Shown here in pieces: positions 1 to 40,985 of a stretch of DNA of 64,000 bases. This DNA comes from a phage, in NCBI GenBank assembly GCA_032986305.1, contig GCA_032986305.1_3672.1. One strand, given 5' to 3'. A program made the position numbers and the translations under genes. The stretch's first letter is position 1. Each line of letters opens with the position of its first letter. The notes beneath the pieces are model-generated. The model had not been told where the DNA came from. It did not search any database and was given only the letters and a program-made list of their open reading frames with translations.

Positions 1-372
1 ACGATCCACAACCCTGTCTGGAACATCATGAATGCTTTTATTACCATGGCGGTTTTCAACCACGATCACGGTATAACTATACCCATGACTGATCGCCATG
101 TCAATATATTCTTGCACATATTTTTCTTTTGTAAACGTATTACTTACCACGATACGGTCGTATCCCATACGCATCATATCTTCTACGTTATCTTTGCACC
201 ATTTTGCTGCAAGTGTTACTTTACTTGCATCCCAGTTATAATTTCCATCATCGTCGTACCAGAACATGTCGTTCTCAAAATGTGGATACAGACCGTCTAA
301 AGATAGCGCATTTGCCAGTGTTGATTTGCCAGACCCTGGCAGACCACGCACGATATATAGCATTTTAGACAT
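1..372 (-). CDS. P-loop kinase, polynucleotide-kinase-like (3' end outside window)
   Basis: Minus-strand ORF starting ATG at 372 with RBS GGAGG; N-terminus MSKMLYIVRGLPGSGKSTLANAL has Walker A; divergent from RNA ligase. Confidence 0.55.
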   Translation of the reverse strand, partial: MSKMLYIVRGLPGSGKSTLANALSLDGLYPHFENDMFWYDDDGNYNWDASKVTLAAKWCKDNVEDMMRMGYDRIVVSNTFTKEKYVQEYIDMAISHGYSYTVIVVENRHGNKSIHDVPDRVVDR

Positions 373-472
373 AGTAATCCTCCGTTTTAATTTCAACGAT
401 AGTATACCTGACTGTTTTGTTAATTTCAAGTGTTGACACTAGGTTATTTGTGTGGCAGGATAGGCTGACAAA

Positions 473-1408
473 ATGACAAATGAGGAACGTATGATGAAGT
501 ATTTTAATGCAGATGACCTAGTAGACAAAGGTCTTGTAACCAGTCGGTATTATCCAGATCTTGGATTAAAGATCTATAAATATGCCAGAAAAGTATTCTA
601 CAACAATCTGTGGCATTTGTCTCCGCGTTTACTGGAGTGCCGAGGTATTGTTGTTGGCAATGAGGGGAATGTTGTGGCATGGCCTTTCACAAAAGTATTC
701 AACTTAGGAGAAAACTCCACCAACCTACCGGACAGTAAACTTGTTACTGCGGTAGAGAAAAAGAACGGATTCCTTGGTGTGGTATCATCTCATAAAGGTG
801 AACTATTGTTCTCAACAACCGGATCTCTTGATTCTCCATATTGTAACCTCACAAAGGAAACCATCCAAGAGCAATGTGGTAATTTAGATCTTATCAAGAA
901 GGTTATGGGCAATGAAAACATGACATTCATGTTTGAAATTTGTCACCCTTCAGATCCGCATATTGTTCAGGAAGATCATGGCGCATATTTGATAGGTTGC
1001 AGATATAATGATTCTGGAATAATGCTGCCAGAAGCAGCTTTAGATGGGATTGCCAAATACCTTGGCGCAAAACGTCCTCACACTGTGCGTGAAATTCCGT
1101 TCAGCTATGCAAAAGAATTGGCTGCAGAAACAAGAGGTGAAGGGTATATGATTCGTAAGCCTTACTACCCTTATGATCTGCAGCTGAAGATCAAGTCTCC
1201 ATACTATCTGGCACGGAAGGCCGTAATGAGGGGTAAAGCTTGGAAGATTTGGGATGATGATATCTTTAAACGTGTTGACGAAGAGTTTTACGGCATGGTA
1301 AACTTCATTCGTAGCAATTACACAGAAGATGTGTGGAACTGCCTACTGGAGCAGGAACGCAGGGAGATACTCGACCACTATTTCCACAACGAGGACTATA
1401 TGCAATGA
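473..1408 (+). CDS. RNA ligase (T4 Rnl1-like)
   Basis: 311 aa; LECRGIVV segment matches recalled T4 RnlA ALECRGIMF region. Confidence 0.7.
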   Translation: MTNEERMMKYFNADDLVDKGLVTSRYYPDLGLKIYKYARKVFYNNLWHLSPRLLECRGIVVGNEGNVVAWPFTKVFNLGENSTNLPDSKLVTAVEKKNGFLGVVSSHKGELLFSTTGSLDSPYCNLTKETIQEQCGNLDLIKKVMGNENMTFMFEICHPSDPHIVQEDHGAYLIGCRYNDSGIMLPEAALDGIAKYLGAKRPHTVREIPFSYAKELAAETRGEGYMIRKPYYPYDLQLKIKSPYYLARKAVMRGKAWKIWDDDIFKRVDEEFYGMVNFIRSNYTEDVWNCLLEQERREILDHYFHNEDYMQ

Positions 1409-1755
1409 AGAAGTTGATTGTGTGGCTGGATGATTTGAGAGATCCGTCAAATTATGGACTCCCAGACGCTGTTTGGCTGAAGAATTCCTCCGAGTTTATG
1501 GATTTTATTAACGATAATGGAAAGCTCTACAGACGCGTTTCTGAGTGGCATATGGACAACGACTTAGGAGAAGTATTCGAAGGATATGATTGCCTATCCA
1601 TGTTGGAGGAAAAATTTGTATTCGGTAAGCCTCCCGTGGTTGACAACGTGAAGATTTTCGTACATACTTCTAATCCATCAGCGGCTCGTAAATTCATGCT
1701 TGCAGCTGACTCGTTTAAAAAGTTTGGAATAGAGATTAAACAAAACATCTACTGA
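1405..1755 (+). CDS. hypothetical protein
   Basis: ATGA overlap with RNA ligase stop; 116 aa MKKLIVWLDDLRDP...; no family recognised. Confidence 0.5.
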   Translation: MKKLIVWLDDLRDPSNYGLPDAVWLKNSSEFMDFINDNGKLYRRVSEWHMDNDLGEVFEGYDCLSMLEEKFVFGKPPVVDNVKIFVHTSNPSAARKFMLAADSFKKFGIEIKQNIY

Positions 1756-1763
1756 GGACACTT

Positions 1764-2525
1764 ATGCGACGACTGATTATTATCTCCGGTGCTGGTTTGA
1801 GCGCTGAATCTGGTATTCCCACTTTCCGATCTGGTAGCACTGCAATGTGGGAGAATTTCAGCATCGATGAGGTGTGCAACATCCACACCTTTGCCAAGAA
1901 CTACTATAAGGTGCATGACTTTTACAATGCACGTCGTGTAGCTCTGGGCAGTGTTGATCCTAACCTTGCACATCTTCGGATCGCTGAGTGGTATTCCCGC
2001 TGGTCTGGTCGTGTGATCAACCTTACCACCAATGTAGATGATTTGCTGGAGCGTGCTGGTGTAAAACATGAAGATATTTTACATGTCCACGGGTATTTGC
2101 CTGAAATCACCTACGAAGATGCTGAAGGTAATGATGTAATTAAAAATATCGGATACACGGAGGTAGATACAGGTAAGTATACCTGGGTTAAGCCCAATGT
2201 AGTGTTCTTCGGTGAGGTTGCTCCTAAGTATACAGACATGTATGACCTGTTGACATCTCTCACAAGCAATGATATGGTGATCCTGGTAGGTTGTTCTAAC
2301 ACAGTTATTAATTTTAACTGGGAATTGTTTCCTGCTACTTGTAAAGGCACAAAACTGCTGATTGTAAACAAGTATGATTCGCAGAGTGCAGATGGAAGTG
2401 GCATTTCACGTAGCGACCTTTATCAATATGAGGATCGCGGGATCCCTGTATGGTTTAACGGTGCTGTTGACGCTTTCTCTGATAAAGTATTTATTGAAAC
2501 TGTAGAAAACTTTATGGAACTTTAA
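1764..2525 (+). CDS. Sir2-family NAD-dependent protein (sirtuin-like, zinc ribbon absent)
   Basis: GAGLSAESGIPTFR NAD-binding motif, TTNVDDLLERAG, catalytic HG (HVHGYL); no CxxC pairs where sirtuin Zn ribbon normally sits. Confidence 0.8.
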   Translation: MRRLIIISGAGLSAESGIPTFRSGSTAMWENFSIDEVCNIHTFAKNYYKVHDFYNARRVALGSVDPNLAHLRIAEWYSRWSGRVINLTTNVDDLLERAGVKHEDILHVHGYLPEITYEDAEGNDVIKNIGYTEVDTGKYTWVKPNVVFFGEVAPKYTDMYDLLTSLTSNDMVILVGCSNTVINFNWELFPATCKGTKLLIVNKYDSQSADGSGISRSDLYQYEDRGIPVWFNGAVDAFSDKVFIETVENFMEL

Positions 2526-2538
2526 AAGGAGACCTTTA

Positions 2539-3252
2539 ATGCTGAATACTAAACTGATCGACAACCTGGAAAAACTGTCTCAGCCTGAAAACTACCTTTG
2601 GTCTGCCAACTGGGTGGAAAACTGGAACCGTGTGGCAGCTAAGGTGAAAAAATCATACACACCATTCGAATTACAGCTTAGCTTCATTGAGGAAGAGTTC
2701 AATGAAGTTTTGGAAGAGCTGGAGAAAGGTGATGGTGGAGATCACTTGCTAAAAGAGGCCTGCGATCTTCATGTTGTCACAAGTTATGCCGCTTATCTTG
2801 TTAATGACAATCACGAAAAGTGGTCAAACCTGTTTGATAATCCACGAGGTATTAAGTTCAAGATTGGTGAGTTCTATGATACACTGATCGCTGCGAAAAA
2901 CACCTCTAAGCAAAGAGCGTCTGCTTACCGCTTAGCAGAGTTGTCAACAGCTTTGCTGTTCCAGCTTCGCGGAGATGTGTGCGGGATGATGCGTAAGGTT
3001 CTCAAATCGAATGACAGCAAGTTTGCACGGGTCAACCATCTACGGTATTCACACGGTGCCAGTGCAGATATGCCTGCTGAACAACTCATCGAGTTGGAGA
3101 TTAAAGATCTTGAGCGACGCTTTGATGGTCGATATGAAGGTTTTGTTGCTAAGGAAGAATTCTACAACGGTAATAAAGTTATCATATTCCTTGACAGTAA
3201 AGGTAAGATCATGAAGCCTTCAAGCTTCAAGGATGTAACAGGGTATATTTAA
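2539..3252 (+). CDS. MazG-like nucleotide pyrophosphohydrolase (putative)
   Basis: EEEFNEVLEELEKGDGGDHLLKEACDL resembles MazG E-x2-E ... E-x2-D motif. Confidence 0.5.
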   Translation: MLNTKLIDNLEKLSQPENYLWSANWVENWNRVAAKVKKSYTPFELQLSFIEEEFNEVLEELEKGDGGDHLLKEACDLHVVTSYAAYLVNDNHEKWSNLFDNPRGIKFKIGEFYDTLIAAKNTSKQRASAYRLAELSTALLFQLRGDVCGMMRKVLKSNDSKFARVNHLRYSHGASADMPAEQLIELEIKDLERRFDGRYEGFVAKEEFYNGNKVIIFLDSKGKIMKPSSFKDVTGYI

Positions 3253-3258
3253 CAACAT

Positions 3259-3285
3259 AGCCGGGATCACCCGGCTTTACTTGTT
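3259..3285 (+). terminator. intrinsic terminator
   Basis: AGCCGGG-atca-CCCGGCT hairpin followed by T-rich tail. Confidence 0.5.
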
Positions 3286-3624
3286 GTGGAAAGTATGCAA
3301 GTGAGGCAGATAGTTATGTACAAGCACTCTAGAGATCTTGAAAACGATGCTGTGTTTGGGGATCAGATGAAAGAGTTGGTTAAACTCATAGGCAGGATAG
3401 AGGATAAGTTTGACACTAAGATCTACATCGACAGCAAAGTATTCAACCACAAAATATGGACAAATCTGTGTGTTGGACTACATGGAGATAAAGATGTTGT
3501 AAATTTAGTTGTAATTAAGTTCATAGTGTGGCAGAATAAGACTATACGTTATTCCGATCCACACTTACTTGTTTATCCTATAAAAGACCTACTACAGAAA
3601 GAGGACTGCAATGCCGTTATTTAA
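3286..3624 (+). CDS. hypothetical protein
   Basis: 112 aa ORF, co-oriented. Confidence 0.4.
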   Translation: MESMQVRQIVMYKHSRDLENDAVFGDQMKELVKLIGRIEDKFDTKIYIDSKVFNHKIWTNLCVGLHGDKDVVNLVVIKFIVWQNKTIRYSDPHLLVYPIKDLLQKEDCNAVI

Positions 3625-3880
3625 TCTTGCTAAACCTGTAGAAGCCCACCAGTTTGACGGAAGCTCTTCATCAGTATCTGATCTGCAACGGTGGATTGAT
3701 ACAGGTGTGTTTACATCGTCACCTGTTCGGACCAGAGATCTTCGTCGCATGTGTGAGCTTGTCGAGCCTTTTGGTAACCTTGTCTTGTACCAAGGAGATT
3801 GGCTAGTTGACTTTATGGGAGACTGGTTGGTAATGAGTAAAGAAGAGATGTTTAAAATTTTTAAGGAAGAGGCCGAGTAA
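3611..3880 (+). CDS. hypothetical protein
   Basis: 89 aa ORF; stop overlaps ligase start (TAATG). Confidence 0.4.
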   Translation: MPLFNLAKPVEAHQFDGSSSSVSDLQRWIDTGVFTSSPVRTRDLRRMCELVEPFGNLVLYQGDWLVDFMGDWLVMSKEEMFKIFKEEAE

Positions 3881-5163
3881 TGCATCAAATCAAAACAACA
3901 CTGTACGCACTGAACAAAGATGGCAGCTACCAACAGTGGAAAGTATTCACTGATGGCGAAAAGGTTATCGTAGAGTTTGGCAAGCTTGACGGTAAATTGC
4001 AGTACAAAGAGACGGTATGCACACCTAAGAACGTAGGTCGTGCCAATGAGACTACAGCTGAGCAACAGGCCGAGCTTGAGGCTATCAGCAAGTGGGAAAA
4101 ACAAGTCCGTCTGGGGTATGTTGAAAACATGGAAGATTGCGAGCAGGGTGTTGATCTTTTACCCATGCTGGTGCATGACTACCTGAAGCGTGGCAAGGCA
4201 CTTAAACTACCTTGCTGGATCTTGCGTAAGTTAGATGGCCTTCGTCTGCTTGTTGTTTTCCAAAATGGTGAGCCTAAATTTATTTCCCGTGGTAATAAGT
4301 CCTACCCTATTCAAGGAAAGCTTTTAGAGCAACTTCGTTCTTTCCATTCTACCACTGGGATTAAACAACTTGATGGGGAACTATACATTCATGGTCTTCC
4401 TTTGCAGAAAATAGTGTCTCTTGCTAAACGGTGGCGAACACAGGAAGAGATTCAGGCCGAGATCGATAAAGACTATGAGGCAGATAAAAAACGCCGTCAT
4501 ACCGCAATTAAGGCAGGCTTATCAACATACAAAAACTTCAACAAGGTAGATATTCCTGTCGATGTTGAGCCTGTTCGTGATGATTTGCGTTACGGTGGGT
4601 ACTGTAGCTACGATCTTGAGTATCACATTTTTGATATTCCTAGCGACAAGGTGTGGTGGGATCCAGAAACAGAGTCTGGACGCTGCAAGGATCTTATGGA
4701 TGCAGAGGATACCGTTACCACTCTGATGCTTGACCATATCAAGGTTGTTGACGCAGAGCTTGCGTACACAGTTGATCATTGCGAAGAATCTGTTGGTATA
4801 TTCATGTCCGAAGGATATGAAGGTACTATCATGCGTAATTTCTGCGGTAAATATGAGTATGGTCAGAGAACATCTGAAGCATTGAAATGGAAAAAGTTCA
4901 ACGACGCAGAGGTGAAAGTTATTGACGTTGAGAAAGATAAGAATGATGAAGGTGTTCTTATCTGTGTTGACAAGGAAGGTGTTGTTGTTAAAATGAAGAT
5001 GAAAGGCACGCACGAGGAGCGTAGCTATGACAGGATGCAGGAAATGATCGGCAAGTTTGTCACCTTCAAATATCAAGCAAGGACAGAAGACAACAACTAC
5101 CAATTCCCTGTCGGTATCTGCGTCCGAAATGTTAACCCAGACACTTGGGAGGTGCTGGAATAA
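3880..5163 (+). CDS. ATP-dependent DNA ligase
   Basis: 427 aa; nucleotidyltransferase motif I KLDGLR; EGTIMRN motif; resembles recalled T7 gp1.3 layout. Confidence 0.7.
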   Translation: MHQIKTTLYALNKDGSYQQWKVFTDGEKVIVEFGKLDGKLQYKETVCTPKNVGRANETTAEQQAELEAISKWEKQVRLGYVENMEDCEQGVDLLPMLVHDYLKRGKALKLPCWILRKLDGLRLLVVFQNGEPKFISRGNKSYPIQGKLLEQLRSFHSTTGIKQLDGELYIHGLPLQKIVSLAKRWRTQEEIQAEIDKDYEADKKRRHTAIKAGLSTYKNFNKVDIPVDVEPVRDDLRYGGYCSYDLEYHIFDIPSDKVWWDPETESGRCKDLMDAEDTVTTLMLDHIKVVDAELAYTVDHCEESVGIFMSEGYEGTIMRNFCGKYEYGQRTSEALKWKKFNDAEVKVIDVEKDKNDEGVLICVDKEGVVVKMKMKGTHEERSYDRMQEMIGKFVTFKYQARTEDNNYQFPVGICVRNVNPDTWEVLE

Positions 5164-5316
5164 TTTAGGTATGCTTAGTAGATAACGGTAGCCAATTGAA
5201 TAAGTGTTTTCAATTTGCACCTACATATACCCTGATGTATGCACTGTGCAACCTAGCCACACCACACAGTGGTGCTGATCGGGGCCTCGTTATGAGTGAA
5301 CTGGAGAGTATGAAAA

Positions 5317-5787
5317 ATGAAACTTGATAAAAATGTTCAACGAAAAGCTTTCTTGGATATGATCGCATATTCGGAAGGCACAGATAATGGTAGACAACCA
5401 ACTAAGGATCGGGGATACGATGTCATAGTTGGTGGCAAGCTGTTTAGCGATTACAGCAAGCATCCAGGTGTGTACGTTAAGCTAAATGCTAAACTTACCT
5501 CCTCCGCTGCTGGGCGTTACCAGGTTTTGGAGAAGTTTGCTAAACACTACATGGAACAGTTAGGATTGCCAGATTTTGGCCCTGCCAGTCAGGACAAGAT
5601 TGCGTTGCAACTGATCCGTGAGTGCAAGGCTCTCTCCGACATTGACGAAGGGCGTATCCACGAGGCTATCCATAAATGCCGTTCCCGCTGGGCTTCGTTA
5701 CCTGGTGCTGGATATGGTCAGCATGAACAGAAGATCGAGAAGTTGATCGAGGTGTTTAAAAAGGCAGGCGGTGTTGTCCTTGATTGA
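5317..5787 (+). CDS. endolysin, lambda R-type lytic transglycosylase
   Basis: QRKAFLDMIAYSEGTDNGRQ...GYDVIVGG...RWASLPGAGYGQ closely matches recalled lambda R. Confidence 0.85.
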   Translation: MKLDKNVQRKAFLDMIAYSEGTDNGRQPTKDRGYDVIVGGKLFSDYSKHPGVYVKLNAKLTSSAAGRYQVLEKFAKHYMEQLGLPDFGPASQDKIALQLIRECKALSDIDEGRIHEAIHKCRSRWASLPGAGYGQHEQKIEKLIEVFKKAGGVVLD

Positions 5788-5850
5788 TCATTGACATAAC
5801 CACACGGACGTGGTATTGTTACCTCATAAAATGTTTAGCAGGGTTTAACC

Positions 5851-6057
5851 ATGAAAGATTTTCTGTTGGCAATTTTGTTCATGGCAGCATGTCTGGCCTG
5901 TGGTGTCGTGTTTGCAGGTGAAACAGCGTATCTTGTCGATGTATATCGGGACAATGGTAAACGTATTTGCCTTTATGAGACAAGTCAAGGTGAGCTCTAC
6001 GAGCTTGTGAAACAAGGCGAGGCTGGATCTTGTCCTCGCACCCATTTCTTTGAATGA
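5851..6057 (+). CDS. small secreted or lipoprotein (possible spanin-like)
   Basis: 68 aa; hydrophobic N-terminus with lipobox-like LAC; immediately downstream of endolysin. Confidence 0.4.
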   Translation: MKDFLLAILFMAACLACGVVFAGETAYLVDVYRDNGKRICLYETSQGELYELVKQGEAGSCPRTHFFE

Positions 6058-37858: not shown

Positions 37859-38185
37859 ATGGGTATACCGGTCACTGTAAAAGAATTGAATGAACGTGAT
37901 GCAGGTGGTCTATGGCCTGCACGAAAAATACGCTGCGTCTACATGAAAGAGAACCTTGAACATCTTGATCAACAGATCAAGGTCGGTGATATTTTCGAGG
38001 TCTTCTATTCCAATCGTCGCAACTGGGAAACCATTCAGCCTTCTGGTTTTGTTCTTGCCAAACTTGACACTGGAGAAGTGATTATTCCAGGGTTGGATAT
38101 TGTCTTCGAAATTATCCAGGAGTGGGATCCGGATAAGATTAGATACGAAGAGTTATTCGGTAAAGGTATTATCAAACCTGTGTGA
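37859..38185 (+). CDS. hypothetical protein
   Basis: RBS GGAGA; 108 aa. Confidence 0.4.
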   Translation: MGIPVTVKELNERDAGGLWPARKIRCVYMKENLEHLDQQIKVGDIFEVFYSNRRNWETIQPSGFVLAKLDTGEVIIPGLDIVFEIIQEWDPDKIRYEELFGKGIIKPV

Positions 38186-38193
38186 GGTGGATT

Positions 38194-38493
38194 ATGTCTA
38201 CAAAGGCGGCTAAATACTCTTACATGCCATCAACCTCTGCAGAGGTAGACTTTAGTTTTGATGTGTTTCCACTGTTCGAGGTGGTTCTGGCATACCCAAC
38301 AATACTATCTACCCCTGAATCACTTGTGCCTGTTAAGTTGCAGAACGCTATGCATTCTATGCATTACAACAATAAATGTAGGCACAGATGGTGTCAGGAC
38401 GAGGAAAAGGATCTGGACAGTTTGAGAGATTTTGACAATCACCTTTTGACACCTTTCAGCTACTCCAACCTTGATAAGCCCTCATGGATATAG
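38194..38493 (+). CDS. hypothetical protein
   Basis: ATG after RBS GAGGTGG. Confidence 0.4.
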   Translation: MSTKAAKYSYMPSTSAEVDFSFDVFPLFEVVLAYPTILSTPESLVPVKLQNAMHSMHYNNKCRHRWCQDEEKDLDSLRDFDNHLLTPFSYSNLDKPSWI

Positions 38494-38517
38494 CAAAATA
38501 TCAAATTTAAGACACCT

Positions 38518-38550
38518 AGGACGCTCTGTGGCGTCCTTTTCTTTATTTAG
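38518..38550 (+). terminator. intrinsic terminator
   Basis: AGGACGC-tctgtg-GCGTCCT then TTTTCTTTATTT. Confidence 0.6.
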
Positions 38551-38706
38551 TGCACGATTGCATACCTTGGACAGATAATCTCATTACAGAGCGTTTAAGA
38601 GCTTCCTGCAAACAACTCCATATTTCGAGCGTAGCGAGAACGCACGTCCGTTTTGACCAAAATCACCATACGCTCGGATTTTAACCAAACCCTCGCGGCG
38701 TTTATG

Positions 38707-38735
38707 TTGACACATTACCGCTCTCGTGATAGTAT
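38707..38735 (+). promoter_or_regulatory. sigma70-like promoter
   Basis: TTGACA - 17 nt - TAGTAT. Confidence 0.5.
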
Positions 38736-38853
38736 CCACACATAGTTTGTAGAATATGGAATACACAATGAAAACATTGTCCGAAGTTTTGGTAGTGATC
38801 CTGATGATCATTACGTCCATAGCAGCTGTTGCCGGAATACTCACGGGTGGAAC

Positions 38854-39066
38854 ATGATCAACACACATGTATCTGAAGAGACATCCAAAGGGGTGACCAT
38901 CTGTCACTTGGCTGAGCCAGTGCAAGAGGAAAACTTCGATTCTGAAGATTCTCCATCTTCGCTACAGGTAGATCCTGAGGCTGATGACCTGACGTGGGAG
39001 GACATCGTAGATATCTGGTTCTCTATTATGCCTGAGCACGAAGAGTTCAGGGGTGGTAGACTATGA
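38854..39066 (+). CDS. hypothetical acidic protein
   Basis: 70 aa; preferred over antisense ORF 38584..38925. Confidence 0.35.
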   Translation: MINTHVSEETSKGVTICHLAEPVQEENFDSEDSPSSLQVDPEADDLTWEDIVDIWFSIMPEHEEFRGGRL

Positions 39067-39187
39067 AGCACCGAGCCCACACAGGTTCCTCATGCTAAAG
39101 CATGGCCTGAAGAGGCAAACGTGCATAATTCCTGTGCATTGGAACGTATGAAACCCTGTTCACACTCTCATTTCCAGAGGAGATTTC

Positions 39188-39403
39188 ATGAAGATAGAAA
39201 TATTTGGTGGAGCTGACAACACTCGTGGCCTGATTTACCTTGAATTCGATGAATCATACCTGCCAGAGGTGTTAAATATAAACTCTGTTGCTGAGGCTTT
39301 GGGAGTAAACCCTAAAGAACTCCACTCTTGTGCTGAGATCGATGGTTGGGAAGAGACCATGAACATTGATTTCAGTGAAGTAGAGGATGAACCGCTGGAC
39401 TGA
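39188..39403 (+). CDS. hypothetical protein (MKIEI small paralog family)
   Basis: MKIEIFGGADNT..., RBS AGAGGAGA. Confidence 0.45.
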   Translation: MKIEIFGGADNTRGLIYLEFDESYLPEVLNINSVAEALGVNPKELHSCAEIDGWEETMNIDFSEVEDEPLD

Positions 39404-40985
39404 CACACAATTAGCTGCCCGGCTAAAGTGCTGGAAGCACCTATAACACATCTTTCAACTAAATTTCCCACCACCACAATCACTTACCTCCCACACATGA
39501 CTGTTTGCTTGTTTAGTGAGCAGTCATGCCTTGACATTCTTGCCTATCCTGATAAAATTAAGTTCTTCTCTTTTCTTTTACCGAGTAATTCGGGTTTTCT
39601 GTTCTCTTCGGTTTGAAGAGGTATGGAGATACACCTGAGTGAACAGGGTGAACAACCGAACCATTGGCTATGGCATTAGCATGGCGAAGCGGACGGGTGA
39701 CGAAAGAGGGGCCGGAGGACACCAGTCACTGCCATATGATATACGGGTGATAACCTGAAGAGTCTGAATAAGTGTTTAAGTACCAGTCAGAGGAAAAGGT
39801 GAATGGTAGCCGAAGGGGGAGGGGGGTTTCTTGTATCTTTAATTTGTATATTATGTATACACTTGTAAACCAATCTCATCTGAATCTGTTTACTACACAA
39901 AGCTGATAGGGACAAATATTACCTATTAAACTTGAATTATTTATAGAAAATACCACAACACAACTTAAGTCTTTGATTTTACACACAAATCCTGCAGATA
40001 TTCACCCTCCATATTTAACATACTTGTAACATATTCCATACTCTACCTACCTGATCAATTTACCCACCAACATCCTCCATATTTTCCCTGTCTGTACCAC
40101 CCCTGCCCCGCCGGGAGTCCCGTCATATCTGGCTTTCCAGCAAATATCACACCCACAAATATCATTGCCTGAAGAGGATTTCATCTCATAATACATGCCT
40201 TGCCTGAAGAGCGCTTCATACACCACGTAAATTTTTTAATTGACCCCCTCCCCGCCGCCGGAGAGGTTGGCTTTTCCCACACAGACCTGAAGAGTCAGCC
40301 AGAAATATCTGAATGGACCCAATTCTGCCCTGTTATGAGCCGTAGCTACTGGAGTGCTGCCAGGCGGACGAAATGGGAATACTTCTCATTCTTATAACAA
40401 TTCTCAAATATCAAGGCAGTGAGTCAAATTAATAGGCGAGGCCGTTCACACAGTGGCACAACATTTGCAACCTATCTTGTGGGGGTGAATGAGAATACCT
40501 ATCATTGTGAGAATAGTTATCATTACGGGCAATTTAACATAATACCCATTATGCGCACCACTGGCGATACATACAGGGATTGATAACATGAGTTACTGTT
40601 TACGCATATAACAATTATATTTCTTACTATTTGTGTGGGATATAGTTAGCAGCCAATAGATTAGATATTGACCTGTAGACTTCCAACCGTCTAGACGTCT
40701 AAACGCCCACACAGCAAGGGTTATACATACACTTCTGAATGTAAACAGGGCCGCAAAAATGCTACCATACCAGTTTGTAAATTTTTCATGCAGCACTTGA
40801 CAAAGAGGAGAAAAACTTGTCTGACACTTTAGACACAATAGTGACATACTATGACACCTTTGACACTTTTGCATACCTGATTGTTTGCATGTCTAATAGT
40901 TTACATGGATAACTGTTCACATACTTATCATTTACATGATTGACTGTTTACACAAATATGATAAGCCATGACATTCGTTTGCATG

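Follow-up and report, generated by a model that had tools for sequence, protein, structure and literature searches.

The first 3,252 positions of a 64,000-nucleotide stretch of phage DNA (GenBank assembly GCA_032986305.1, contig GCA_032986305.1_3672.1; the window) hold a compact cluster of five genes, one on the minus strand and four on the plus strand, which form two divergent operons about 120 nucleotides (nt) apart (Table 1). An earlier note made from the sequence alone had described a kinase, an RNA ligase, a Sir2-type protein (sirtuin) and a 'MazG-like' pyrophosphohydrolase, and all four genes lie at its coordinates and in the divergent arrangement it gave. Its count of four was one short: a gene for a cyclic-phosphate processing receiver-like (cREC) protein had been overlooked between ligase and sirtuin. 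The kinase is cut by the window edge and its phosphoesterase partner lies off the window, hence outside that note's view.

Table 1. Features in and next to positions 1-3252 of the window, with predicted gene products (aa, amino acids)
Feature	Positions	Strand	Remarks
PNK-type P-loop 5'-OH polynucleotide kinase	1..372	-	124 of 136 aa; last 12 C-terminal aa outside the window
Divergent intergenic region, kinase operon versus ligase operon	373..493		promoter-like consensus matches only
Rnl1-type ATP-dependent RNA ligase	494..1408	+	304 aa from conserved start; PF09511, phrog_562
cREC protein	1405..1755	+	116 aa; PF20274 (cREC_REC), 1.3e-14
Zinc-less CobB-derived sirtuin, phage-restricted clade	1764..2525	+	253 aa; PF02146, 7e-28
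All-alpha NTP pyrophosphohydrolase, dimeric-dUTPase-like, with small C-terminal beta-hairpin extension	2539..3252	+	237 aa
GC-rich terminator-like hairpin	3259..3276	+	closes the ligase-cREC-Sir2-pyrophosphatase operon
ATP-dependent DNA ligase (context gene)	3880..5163	+	PF01068, PF14743, phrog_114 (3e-83)

The plus-strand operon is tightly packed, with good Shine-Dalgarno sites at all four genes: the ATG of cREC overlaps the ligase stop codon (ATGA), and the subsequent gaps measure 8 nt (cREC to Sir2) and 13 nt (Sir2 to pyrophosphatase). Directly 3' of the pyrophosphatase stop, the hairpin has a 7-bp stem with six G-C pairs, a T-rich tail and a folding energy of -17.6 kcal/mol (z -3.97 against shuffles). 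The divergent intergenic region contains a promoter-like site at 429-401 (minus strand) and an exact TTGACA at 433-438 (plus strand), both of them consensus matches only, and a sigma-70 promoter scan of the region gave 16 sites against 13.5 expected in shuffled sequence, that is, no excess. Over positions 1-6000 the identity with many Escherichia phages is 96-98%; JES2013, PDX and Murica are among these and, like EmilHeitz, belong to Vequintavirus (rV5-like phages). Because 110 phage records match at least 80% of this segment at 90-99% identity, the gene arrangement is not a product of chance.

The kinase (protein starting MSKMLYIVRGLPGSGKST) reads on the minus strand from position 372 down to 1. 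Searches with the single sequence were of limited help: Pfam returned only the generic AAA_33 family (1.9e-9), phmmer against PDB sequences gave nothing useful, and PHROGs gave phrog_2071 and phrog_505 'polynucleotide kinase' (1.2e-9). A profile of nine diverse homologues had as its top PDB matches Pnkp1 (4xrp, 6.9e-6), T4 PNK (1ltq, 7.1e-6) and CthPnk (4gp6), with a fungal tRNA-splicing kinase also among them, and hhalign aligned the family with residues 1-148 of T4 Pnk at 96.7% probability. Invariant in the nine relatives are the P-loop G10-x-x-G13-x-G15-K16-S17-T18 (GxxGxGKST), D35, S77-x-T79 and R108, so that the protein has the GxxGxGK[ST] motif, the Asp general base and the lid Arg of a 5'-OH kinase domain. 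The assignment to the PNK type is thus supported by profile matches to RNA-repair kinases, the alignment with T4 Pnk and the invariance of the motifs. A fused HAD (DxDxT) 3'-phosphatase domain is absent, the full-length JES2013 kinase consisting of 136 aa and the P-loop domain only. In related genomes a 184-aa calcineurin-like metallophosphoesterase begins 7 nt past the kinase stop (Metallophos 6.4e-7; best PDB relative Aquifex aq_1665, 1xm7, 3.2e-11), followed by a helix-turn-helix protein, and the phosphoesterase appears to complete a kinase, phosphatase and ligase set for healing and sealing. Proteins of phrog_8238 (737 aa) match the kinase at their N-terminus and the ligase at their C-terminus; the two activities are therefore fused in other phages.

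The longest open reading frame (ORF) of the ligase runs from 473 to 1408 (311 aa), the ATG kept in relatives being that at 494. It matches RNA_lig_T4_1 (PF09511, 1.1e-14) with 55.2 bits against a cut-off of 28.3, and phrog_562 with an E-value of 1.8e-65. BLASTP aligns it with T4 Rnl1 at 24% identity (E 7e-9), and hhalign aligns its ten-member family with T4 Rnl1 residues 33-249 at 96.4%. Motif I, K96-x-N-G99, falls on K99-x-D-G102 of the T4 enzyme, in which K99 is the adenylylated lysine; motifs I, IV and V are intact, and R57, K74, F76, E223-G224, K239 and K241, invariant in ten relatives, align with residues essential in T4 Rnl1. The earlier reading of kinase and Rnl1-type ligase as a T4-like healing and sealing pair is borne out by both alignments and by the intact ligase motifs. 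The likeness ends at T4 residue 249, where the hhalign alignment stops: the T4 C-terminal domain (about 255-374) is absent, and the last 60 or so residues of the ligase are unrelated to T4 Rnl1. Because that domain is missing and the score against the NCBIfam T4 RnlA equivalog TIGR02308 is far under its cut-off (35.9 bits versus 242), the protein is an Rnl1-family enzyme and not an equivalent of T4 RnlA. Against PDB sequences, single-sequence phmmer gave nothing useful and the family profile no match; with such searches empty, the assignments of ligase and pyrophosphatase needed profile-profile or fold comparison.

The cREC protein scores above the Pfam cut-off for PF20274 and has a REC fold in which the acidic pocket (WLDD, FDNDLG) and an HTSN motif are invariant; as in its family, the receiver-like fold and acidic pocket go with a context of RNA ligase or of nicotinamide adenine dinucleotide (NAD)/ADP-ribose enzymes rather than histidine kinases. 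Iyer et al. 2021, in defining the family, reported a link with RNA ligases and predicted an activity that opens cyclic phosphates (PMC7824862); hydrolysis of cyclic phosphates by its members is a prediction only (PMC9503650, PMC7824862). We found cREC in 357 phage records. Three contigs with the full block (L050, L051 and L058; 147-149 kb) have no detected cREC, and all three carry a conserved 161-aa protein without a Pfam match between kinase and Sir2 (L051:9079-9564). Pfam recognized no cREC substitute in these contigs; the 161-aa protein may be a non-homologous one.

The best PDB match of the sirtuin is E. coli CobB (1s5p, 3.3e-21), followed by SIRT5. About 180 residues can be aligned with CobB and human SIRT5 (E 3e-21), including GAGxS, the catalytic His and the Y-x-x-R pair, and the protein conserves the NAD-binding GAG (G9-A10-G11), TxNVDDL (N90, D93), the catalytic HG (H109) and FGE. 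It differs from both in lacking the zinc-ribbon cysteines and in falling under every NCBIfam CobB-type cut-off (best 122.6 bits against 243; CobB equivalog 104 against 320). The Cys-rich zinc-ribbon stretch of CobB is replaced by a cysteine-poor one of 27-35 aa between HG and KPNVxFF, and this holds clade-wide: CxxC occurs in none of 95 homologues, whereas FYNxRR, the class III Y-x-x-R pair, occurs in all 95. Each of the best 120 database homologues consists of a single domain (240-292 aa), many of them come from phage-sized contigs, and none is a fusion tying the clade to RNA repair; the clade is present in 1011 records of the phage collection, T5-like phages included. From these comparisons the protein belongs to a zinc-less, CobB-derived, phage-restricted clade. 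Defence-type SIR2 proteins (ThsA, DSR1/2, SIR2-HerA, pAgo-associated) were considered and rejected: PADLOC gave no match at E <=0.01, the SIR2_2 match (0.097) is below cut-off, and no partner domains are present. The NARP3 paper proved unrelated to the present sirtuin.

Sequence evidence for the pyrophosphatase is thin. It matches phrog_671 'nucleotide pyrophosphohydrolase' (5.7e-22); Pfam offers only a sub-threshold PRA-PH hit (PF01503, E 0.099; 13.5 bits against a cut-off of 21.3), with no family-level match to MazG (PF03819), PRA-PH or the dimeric dUTPase family, and neither the single sequence nor the family profile matched any PDB sequence. The metal-binding motif EExxE(12-28)ExxD is nevertheless present on a four-helix core, and fold comparison places the protein closest to the dimeric dUTPases (staphylococcal phage Dut, 5myd; Campylobacter jejuni, 1w2y; Leishmania major, 2yay) of the all-alpha NTP pyrophosphohydrolase (MazG/HisE) superfamily, from which it differs in having no PDB match at sequence level and an additional conserved C-terminal beta-hairpin segment. 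'MazG-like' therefore holds for the superfamily and no further.

We followed synteny in 60 viral contigs carrying the sirtuin clade and in 8 annotated loci, searched with the cluster proteins, and in extra loci from a ligase search. The block is conserved, as the earlier note had proposed to check: in Vequintavirus, Seunavirus, Mydovirus and related contigs of 135-153 kb, seven genes (kinase, phosphoesterase, ligase, cREC, Sir2, DNA ligase and pyrophosphatase) lie within about 4 kb, in varying order and strand, the three contigs without detected cREC belonging to this group. The usual order, on one strand, is phosphoesterase, x, ligase, cREC, kinase, Sir2, DNA ligase, x, x, pyrophosphatase (x, another ORF). 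The Vequintavirus variant has kinase and phosphoesterase in inverted orientation, and its pyrophosphatase is the immediate neighbour of Sir2; every rV5-, Seunavirus- or Mydovirus-like locus has the DNA ligase within about 1-2.5 kb of Sir2. Other lineages hold other combinations. In T5-like phages Sir2 precedes a HAD_SAK_2 phosphatase ('Swiss Army Knife RNA repair', 1e-19), and no ligase or kinase accompanies them; in T5-like NBSal003 (L003:5001-6922) the run is Sir2, a small ORF, the HAD_SAK_2 phosphatase and a DUF7415 protein. The phi92-like phage AV123 has a block of cREC, phosphoesterase, ligase, kinase, DNA ligase and pyrophosphatase with Sir2 some 30 kb away, and Pseudomonas Pakpunavirus phiMK has phosphoesterase, ligase and kinase without Sir2, cREC or pyrophosphatase. 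We read phosphoesterase, ligase and kinase as the likely core and cREC as a frequent add-on; the sirtuin seems to be associated with end-healing enzymes in two unrelated lineages, yet separable from them, and the pyrophosphatase seems to track the DNA ligase rather than the sirtuin.

Two further observations concern the neighbours of these genes. At annotation level, NAD+ salvage genes (NAMPT with a Prs-like kinase, or a NadR-like protein with PnuC) stand beside the RNA-repair block in several relatives: Mydo (L076:1-2101), phiMK (L074:5322-8148, directly after the kinase), FBKp34 (L007:1-1006), KE23 (L004:1-681) and AV123 (L075:1-556); the examined parts of the Vequintavirus JES2013 genome have no such gene annotated. 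Directly upstream of Sir2 in a phi92-like phage (L006:4793-5989) and a Pseudomonas phage (L005:3792-5010) lie two conserved proteins without Pfam matches, one acidic, of about 165-176 aa and with a CxxC, the other of about 203-221 aa; as known domains beside Sir2 in phi92-like and Pseudomonas phages, Pfam gave only a DNA methylase and domains of unknown function.

The region is probably the window-resident part of a conserved rV5-type RNA end-healing and sealing module in a Vequintavirus phage, laid out in two divergent operons. How would such a module work? The substrates, the order of steps and a role in counter-defence can be sketched from what is established for T4 Pnkp/Rnl1, bacterial Pnkp and fungal Trl1/Tpt1. 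The 3' end would be healed by the phosphoesterase and/or cREC, the 5' end would be phosphorylated by the kinase, and the break would be resealed by the RNA ligase. In the published proposal, cREC would be a cyclic phosphodiesterase or a processor of ADP-ribose 1'',2''-cyclic phosphate. Should 3' healing end at a 2'-phosphate, as with a cyclic phosphodiesterase, the sealed junction would retain that phosphate and an NAD+-dependent transferase would therefore be needed, which is the slot proposed for the sirtuin. The sirtuin would be an NAD+-using accessory, for which the most specific published proposal is KptA/Tpt1-like removal of the junction 2'-phosphate.

The cluster is already known: it is annotated in more than 100 phage genomes, and its composition and mechanistic hypothesis are in print. 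Iyer et al. 2022 (Viruses 14:1977; PMC9503650, section 3.7.3) found the same neighbourhood in 'Escherichia phage V5' and read it as RNA repair. Their sirtuin-centred RNA-repair neighbourhood type 2 (prototypes Escherichia phage V5 and Proteus phage Mydo), from the same phage genus, shares with ours the sirtuin, T4-like RNA ligase, cREC, nucleotide kinase, MazG-superfamily pyrophosphatase and calcineurin-like phosphoesterase, and there is no essential difference. Our refinements are that the pyrophosphatase is dimeric-dUTPase-like and appears to track the DNA ligase, that the sirtuin zinc ribbon is absent clade-wide, and that a phi92-like repair block occurs without the sirtuin.

Three known systems offer comparison. 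With T4 PseT (Pnkp) and RnlA (Rnl1), which counter the PrrC anticodon nuclease, the cluster shares kinase-domain homology, Rnl1-type adenylyltransferase motifs and the closeness of the two genes. It differs in that the kinase stands alone (136 aa) and carries no fused HAD 3'-phosphatase, so that 3' healing would fall to the phosphoesterase and/or cREC, and in that the ligase lacks the T4 C-terminal domain; the T4 system for its part has neither sirtuin nor cREC. Bacterial Pnkp/Hen1 and Pnkp1-Rnl-Hen1 (Clostridium thermocellum, Capnocytophaga gingivalis) likewise join a P-loop kinase, a dinuclear metallophosphoesterase and an ATP-dependent ligase, and Pnkp1 and CthPnk are the best PDB matches of our kinase profile; here, however, the three activities are separate small proteins, the phosphoesterase is nearest to Aquifex aq_1665 (1xm7) and not to CthPnkp, and no Hen1-type RNA 2'-O-methyltransferase was found among the cluster proteins scanned with Pfam, PHROGs and NCBIfam. 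Fungal and plant Trl1 plus Tpt1 resemble the cluster in having an Rnl1-family ligase, a PNK-type kinase, a cyclic phosphodiesterase (here the candidate cREC) and an NAD+-using enzyme, and the present set could mirror their logic of cyclic phosphodiesterase, kinase, ligase and 2'-phosphotransferase. The parts are not the same: the NAD+ enzyme is a sirtuin (Rossmann fold) and not of the Tpt1/KptA ADP-ribosyltransferase fold, and the candidate cyclic phosphodiesterase is a receiver-like domain and not a 2H enzyme.

Several observations weigh against this interpretation, most of them touching the sirtuin. Sirtuin and ligase are not obligately linked: of the 808 phage records with this type of ligase, 177 are Pseudomonas phages, and Pseudomonas is outside the ten commonest hosts in the Sir2 search; the sirtuin, ligase and cREC record sets overlap only partially. 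In T5-like phages Sir2 has no detectable ligase or kinase within 10 kb, the AV123 repair block, cREC included, does without Sir2, and so does the repair core of phiMK. Because all rV5-like genomes are kin, the conserved order among them is weak evidence of functional coupling. The retained Y-x-x-R pair of class III deacylases is equally compatible with an ordinary protein deacylase, and a phosphoesterase that fully cleared the cyclic phosphate would render a 2'-phosphotransferase needless. ARAGORN found no tRNA genes in the window, the tRNA cluster of JES2013/EmilHeitz-type genomes (4-6 genes) lying about 3.5-4.4 kb outside it. Finally, we found no experimental work in the literature on phage sirtuins, rV5 RNA repair or the Vequintavirinae ligase and kinase. 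On the other side, the T5-like lineage would lend independent support, in that the same sirtuin clade stands there beside an 'RNA repair' phosphatase, an association also reported by Iyer et al. 2022 (PMC9503650).

What the sirtuin does can be narrowed less far. It may be an ordinary protein lysine deacylase or protein ADP-ribosyltransferase serving host takeover, with the repair genes as mere neighbours in an early/middle block, and we regard this as a serious possibility, though an unlikely one. Its nearest solved relative is E. coli CobB; the sirtuin retains GAG, the catalytic His, FGE and the Y-x-x-R pair of class III; Sir2 is distant from the repair block in phi92-like phages, and in the loci examined from Vibrio, Pseudomonas and jumbo phages no repair genes can be recognized around it. 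Set against this are the scores far below the CobB equivalog cut-offs, the clade-wide loss of the zinc ribbon, and the position of the clade beside two kinds of RNA end-healing enzymes in unrelated lineages, rV5-like and T5-like; the published contextual analysis also prefers RNA repair (PMC9503650).

More specifically, the zinc-less phage sirtuin might be an RNA 2'-phosphotransferase that uses NAD+ on Trl1-like junctions, after cREC, kinase and ligase have acted. This proposal, a KptA/Tpt1-like remover of RNA 2'-phosphates, is that of Iyer et al. 2022 (PMC9503650), and we consider it rather doubtful. The chemistry would be plausible, its steps paralleling sirtuin deacylation: a phosphate oxygen would attack C1'' of NAD+, after which the His-activated 2''-OH would attack phosphorus, and the Y-x-x-R pair could hold the anionic phosphate. 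No protein of the cluster matched a Tpt1/KptA ADP-ribosyltransferase-fold domain, the NAD+ enzyme having the sirtuin fold, so a KptA-like role would be analogy and not family membership.

The pyrophosphatase could in turn belong to the sirtuin pathway, hydrolysing ADP-ribose 1'',2''-cyclic phosphate or ADP-ribose. In Vequintavirus it does lie 13 nt downstream of Sir2 in one operon, and Iyer et al. 2022 list MazG in the neighbourhood, implying such a role (PMC9503650). We find this improbable: the DNA ligase and at least two ORFs separate it from Sir2 in Seunavirus, Mydovirus and related loci, it follows the DNA ligase in relatives whether Sir2 is in the block or not (in AV123 it is not), no homologue of it lies near the sirtuin of T5-like phages, and its best structural neighbours are dUTPases. 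JES2013 has annotated ThyX and ribonucleotide reductases and, in the roughly 127 of 137 kb examined, no annotated dUTPase. Given its fold, its constant place after the DNA ligase and this lack of an annotated dUTPase, the protein is most likely a nucleotide-pool enzyme, concerned with pool sanitation, that accompanies the DNA ligase and is not a step of RNA repair.

Ligase and kinase might also serve RNA processing by the phage, such as maturation of its own tRNAs, or T4 gp63-like tail-fibre attachment, rather than counter-defence. The phage tRNA cluster about 3.5-4.4 kb away in JES2013 would suit the former, and many records, taking T4 gp63 as the model, label the ligase 'RNA ligase and tail fiber attachment catalyst'; this label was transferred through homology of the adenylyltransferase domain only, to a protein that lacks the T4 C-terminal domain, and the joint presence of a 5' kinase, a phosphoesterase and cREC is what marks end healing, which makes such roles very improbable.

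The least probable reading is the earlier note's own, a single counter-defence island in which Sir2 and the MazG-like protein neutralize immune signals that are nucleotides or derive from NAD (Thoeris, DSR, CBASS-type), in addition to tRNA repair: both proteins act on nucleotide-type substrates and share an operon with ligase and cREC, and NAD+ salvage genes (NAMPT with Prs; NadR-like with PnuC) flank the block in relatives, but the sirtuin is CobB-like without a PADLOC defence-SIR2 match and is cast by the published reading as a KptA analogue within RNA repair rather than a degrader of signals (PMC9503650), NAD+ consumption would aggravate rather than counter NAD+ depletion, the dimeric-dUTPase-like pyrophosphatase tracks the DNA ligase independently of Sir2, and no protein matched any known anti-Thoeris or anti-CBASS family.

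Some observations lie outside the module. Between pyrophosphatase and DNA ligase are two small conserved ORFs of unassigned function (3295-3624 and 3611-3880; phrog_7684 and phrog_14585), whose homologues are kept in the repair/DNA-ligase block of Seunavirus-, Mydovirus- and related loci at shifted positions, one upstream of the phosphoesterase and the other after the DNA ligase. Just 3' of the DNA ligase, amid nucleic-acid enzymes, an endolysin is encoded at 5317-5787 (phrog_90, 3.4e-56; no Pfam match), and the JES2013 annotation has a second endolysin elsewhere, ORF2. Around 38000-40000 the GC skew changes sign and gene orientation turns from plus to minus; near window 37-40 kb the JES2013 annotation has a gap, where the window has ordinary plus-strand ORFs and unremarkable repeats. 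Among database records, some 19-25 unannotated 'Campylobacter phage' entries (MG065644-MG065682; host C. jejuni) share 96-98% identity with rV5-like phages of E. coli, and their host label looks doubtful.

The present window is a further example of this module, with refinements, and not a discovery. The remaining interest lies in the role of the phage sirtuin clade: the RNA 2'-phosphate hypothesis is already in print, and its confirmation alone would be new. If it is true, this would be the first RNA-acting sirtuin and a non-homologous replacement of Tpt1/KptA, and it would extend sirtuin chemistry to nucleic acids. The RNA-repair core, T4-style tRNA repair carried out by separate small enzymes, is standard kit of rV5-like, Seunavirus-, Mydovirus- and phi92-like phages and of Pseudomonas Pakpunavirus, groups with uses in phage therapy and members in the BASEL collection, and it is relevant to predicting which ribotoxin-based defences such phages can escape.

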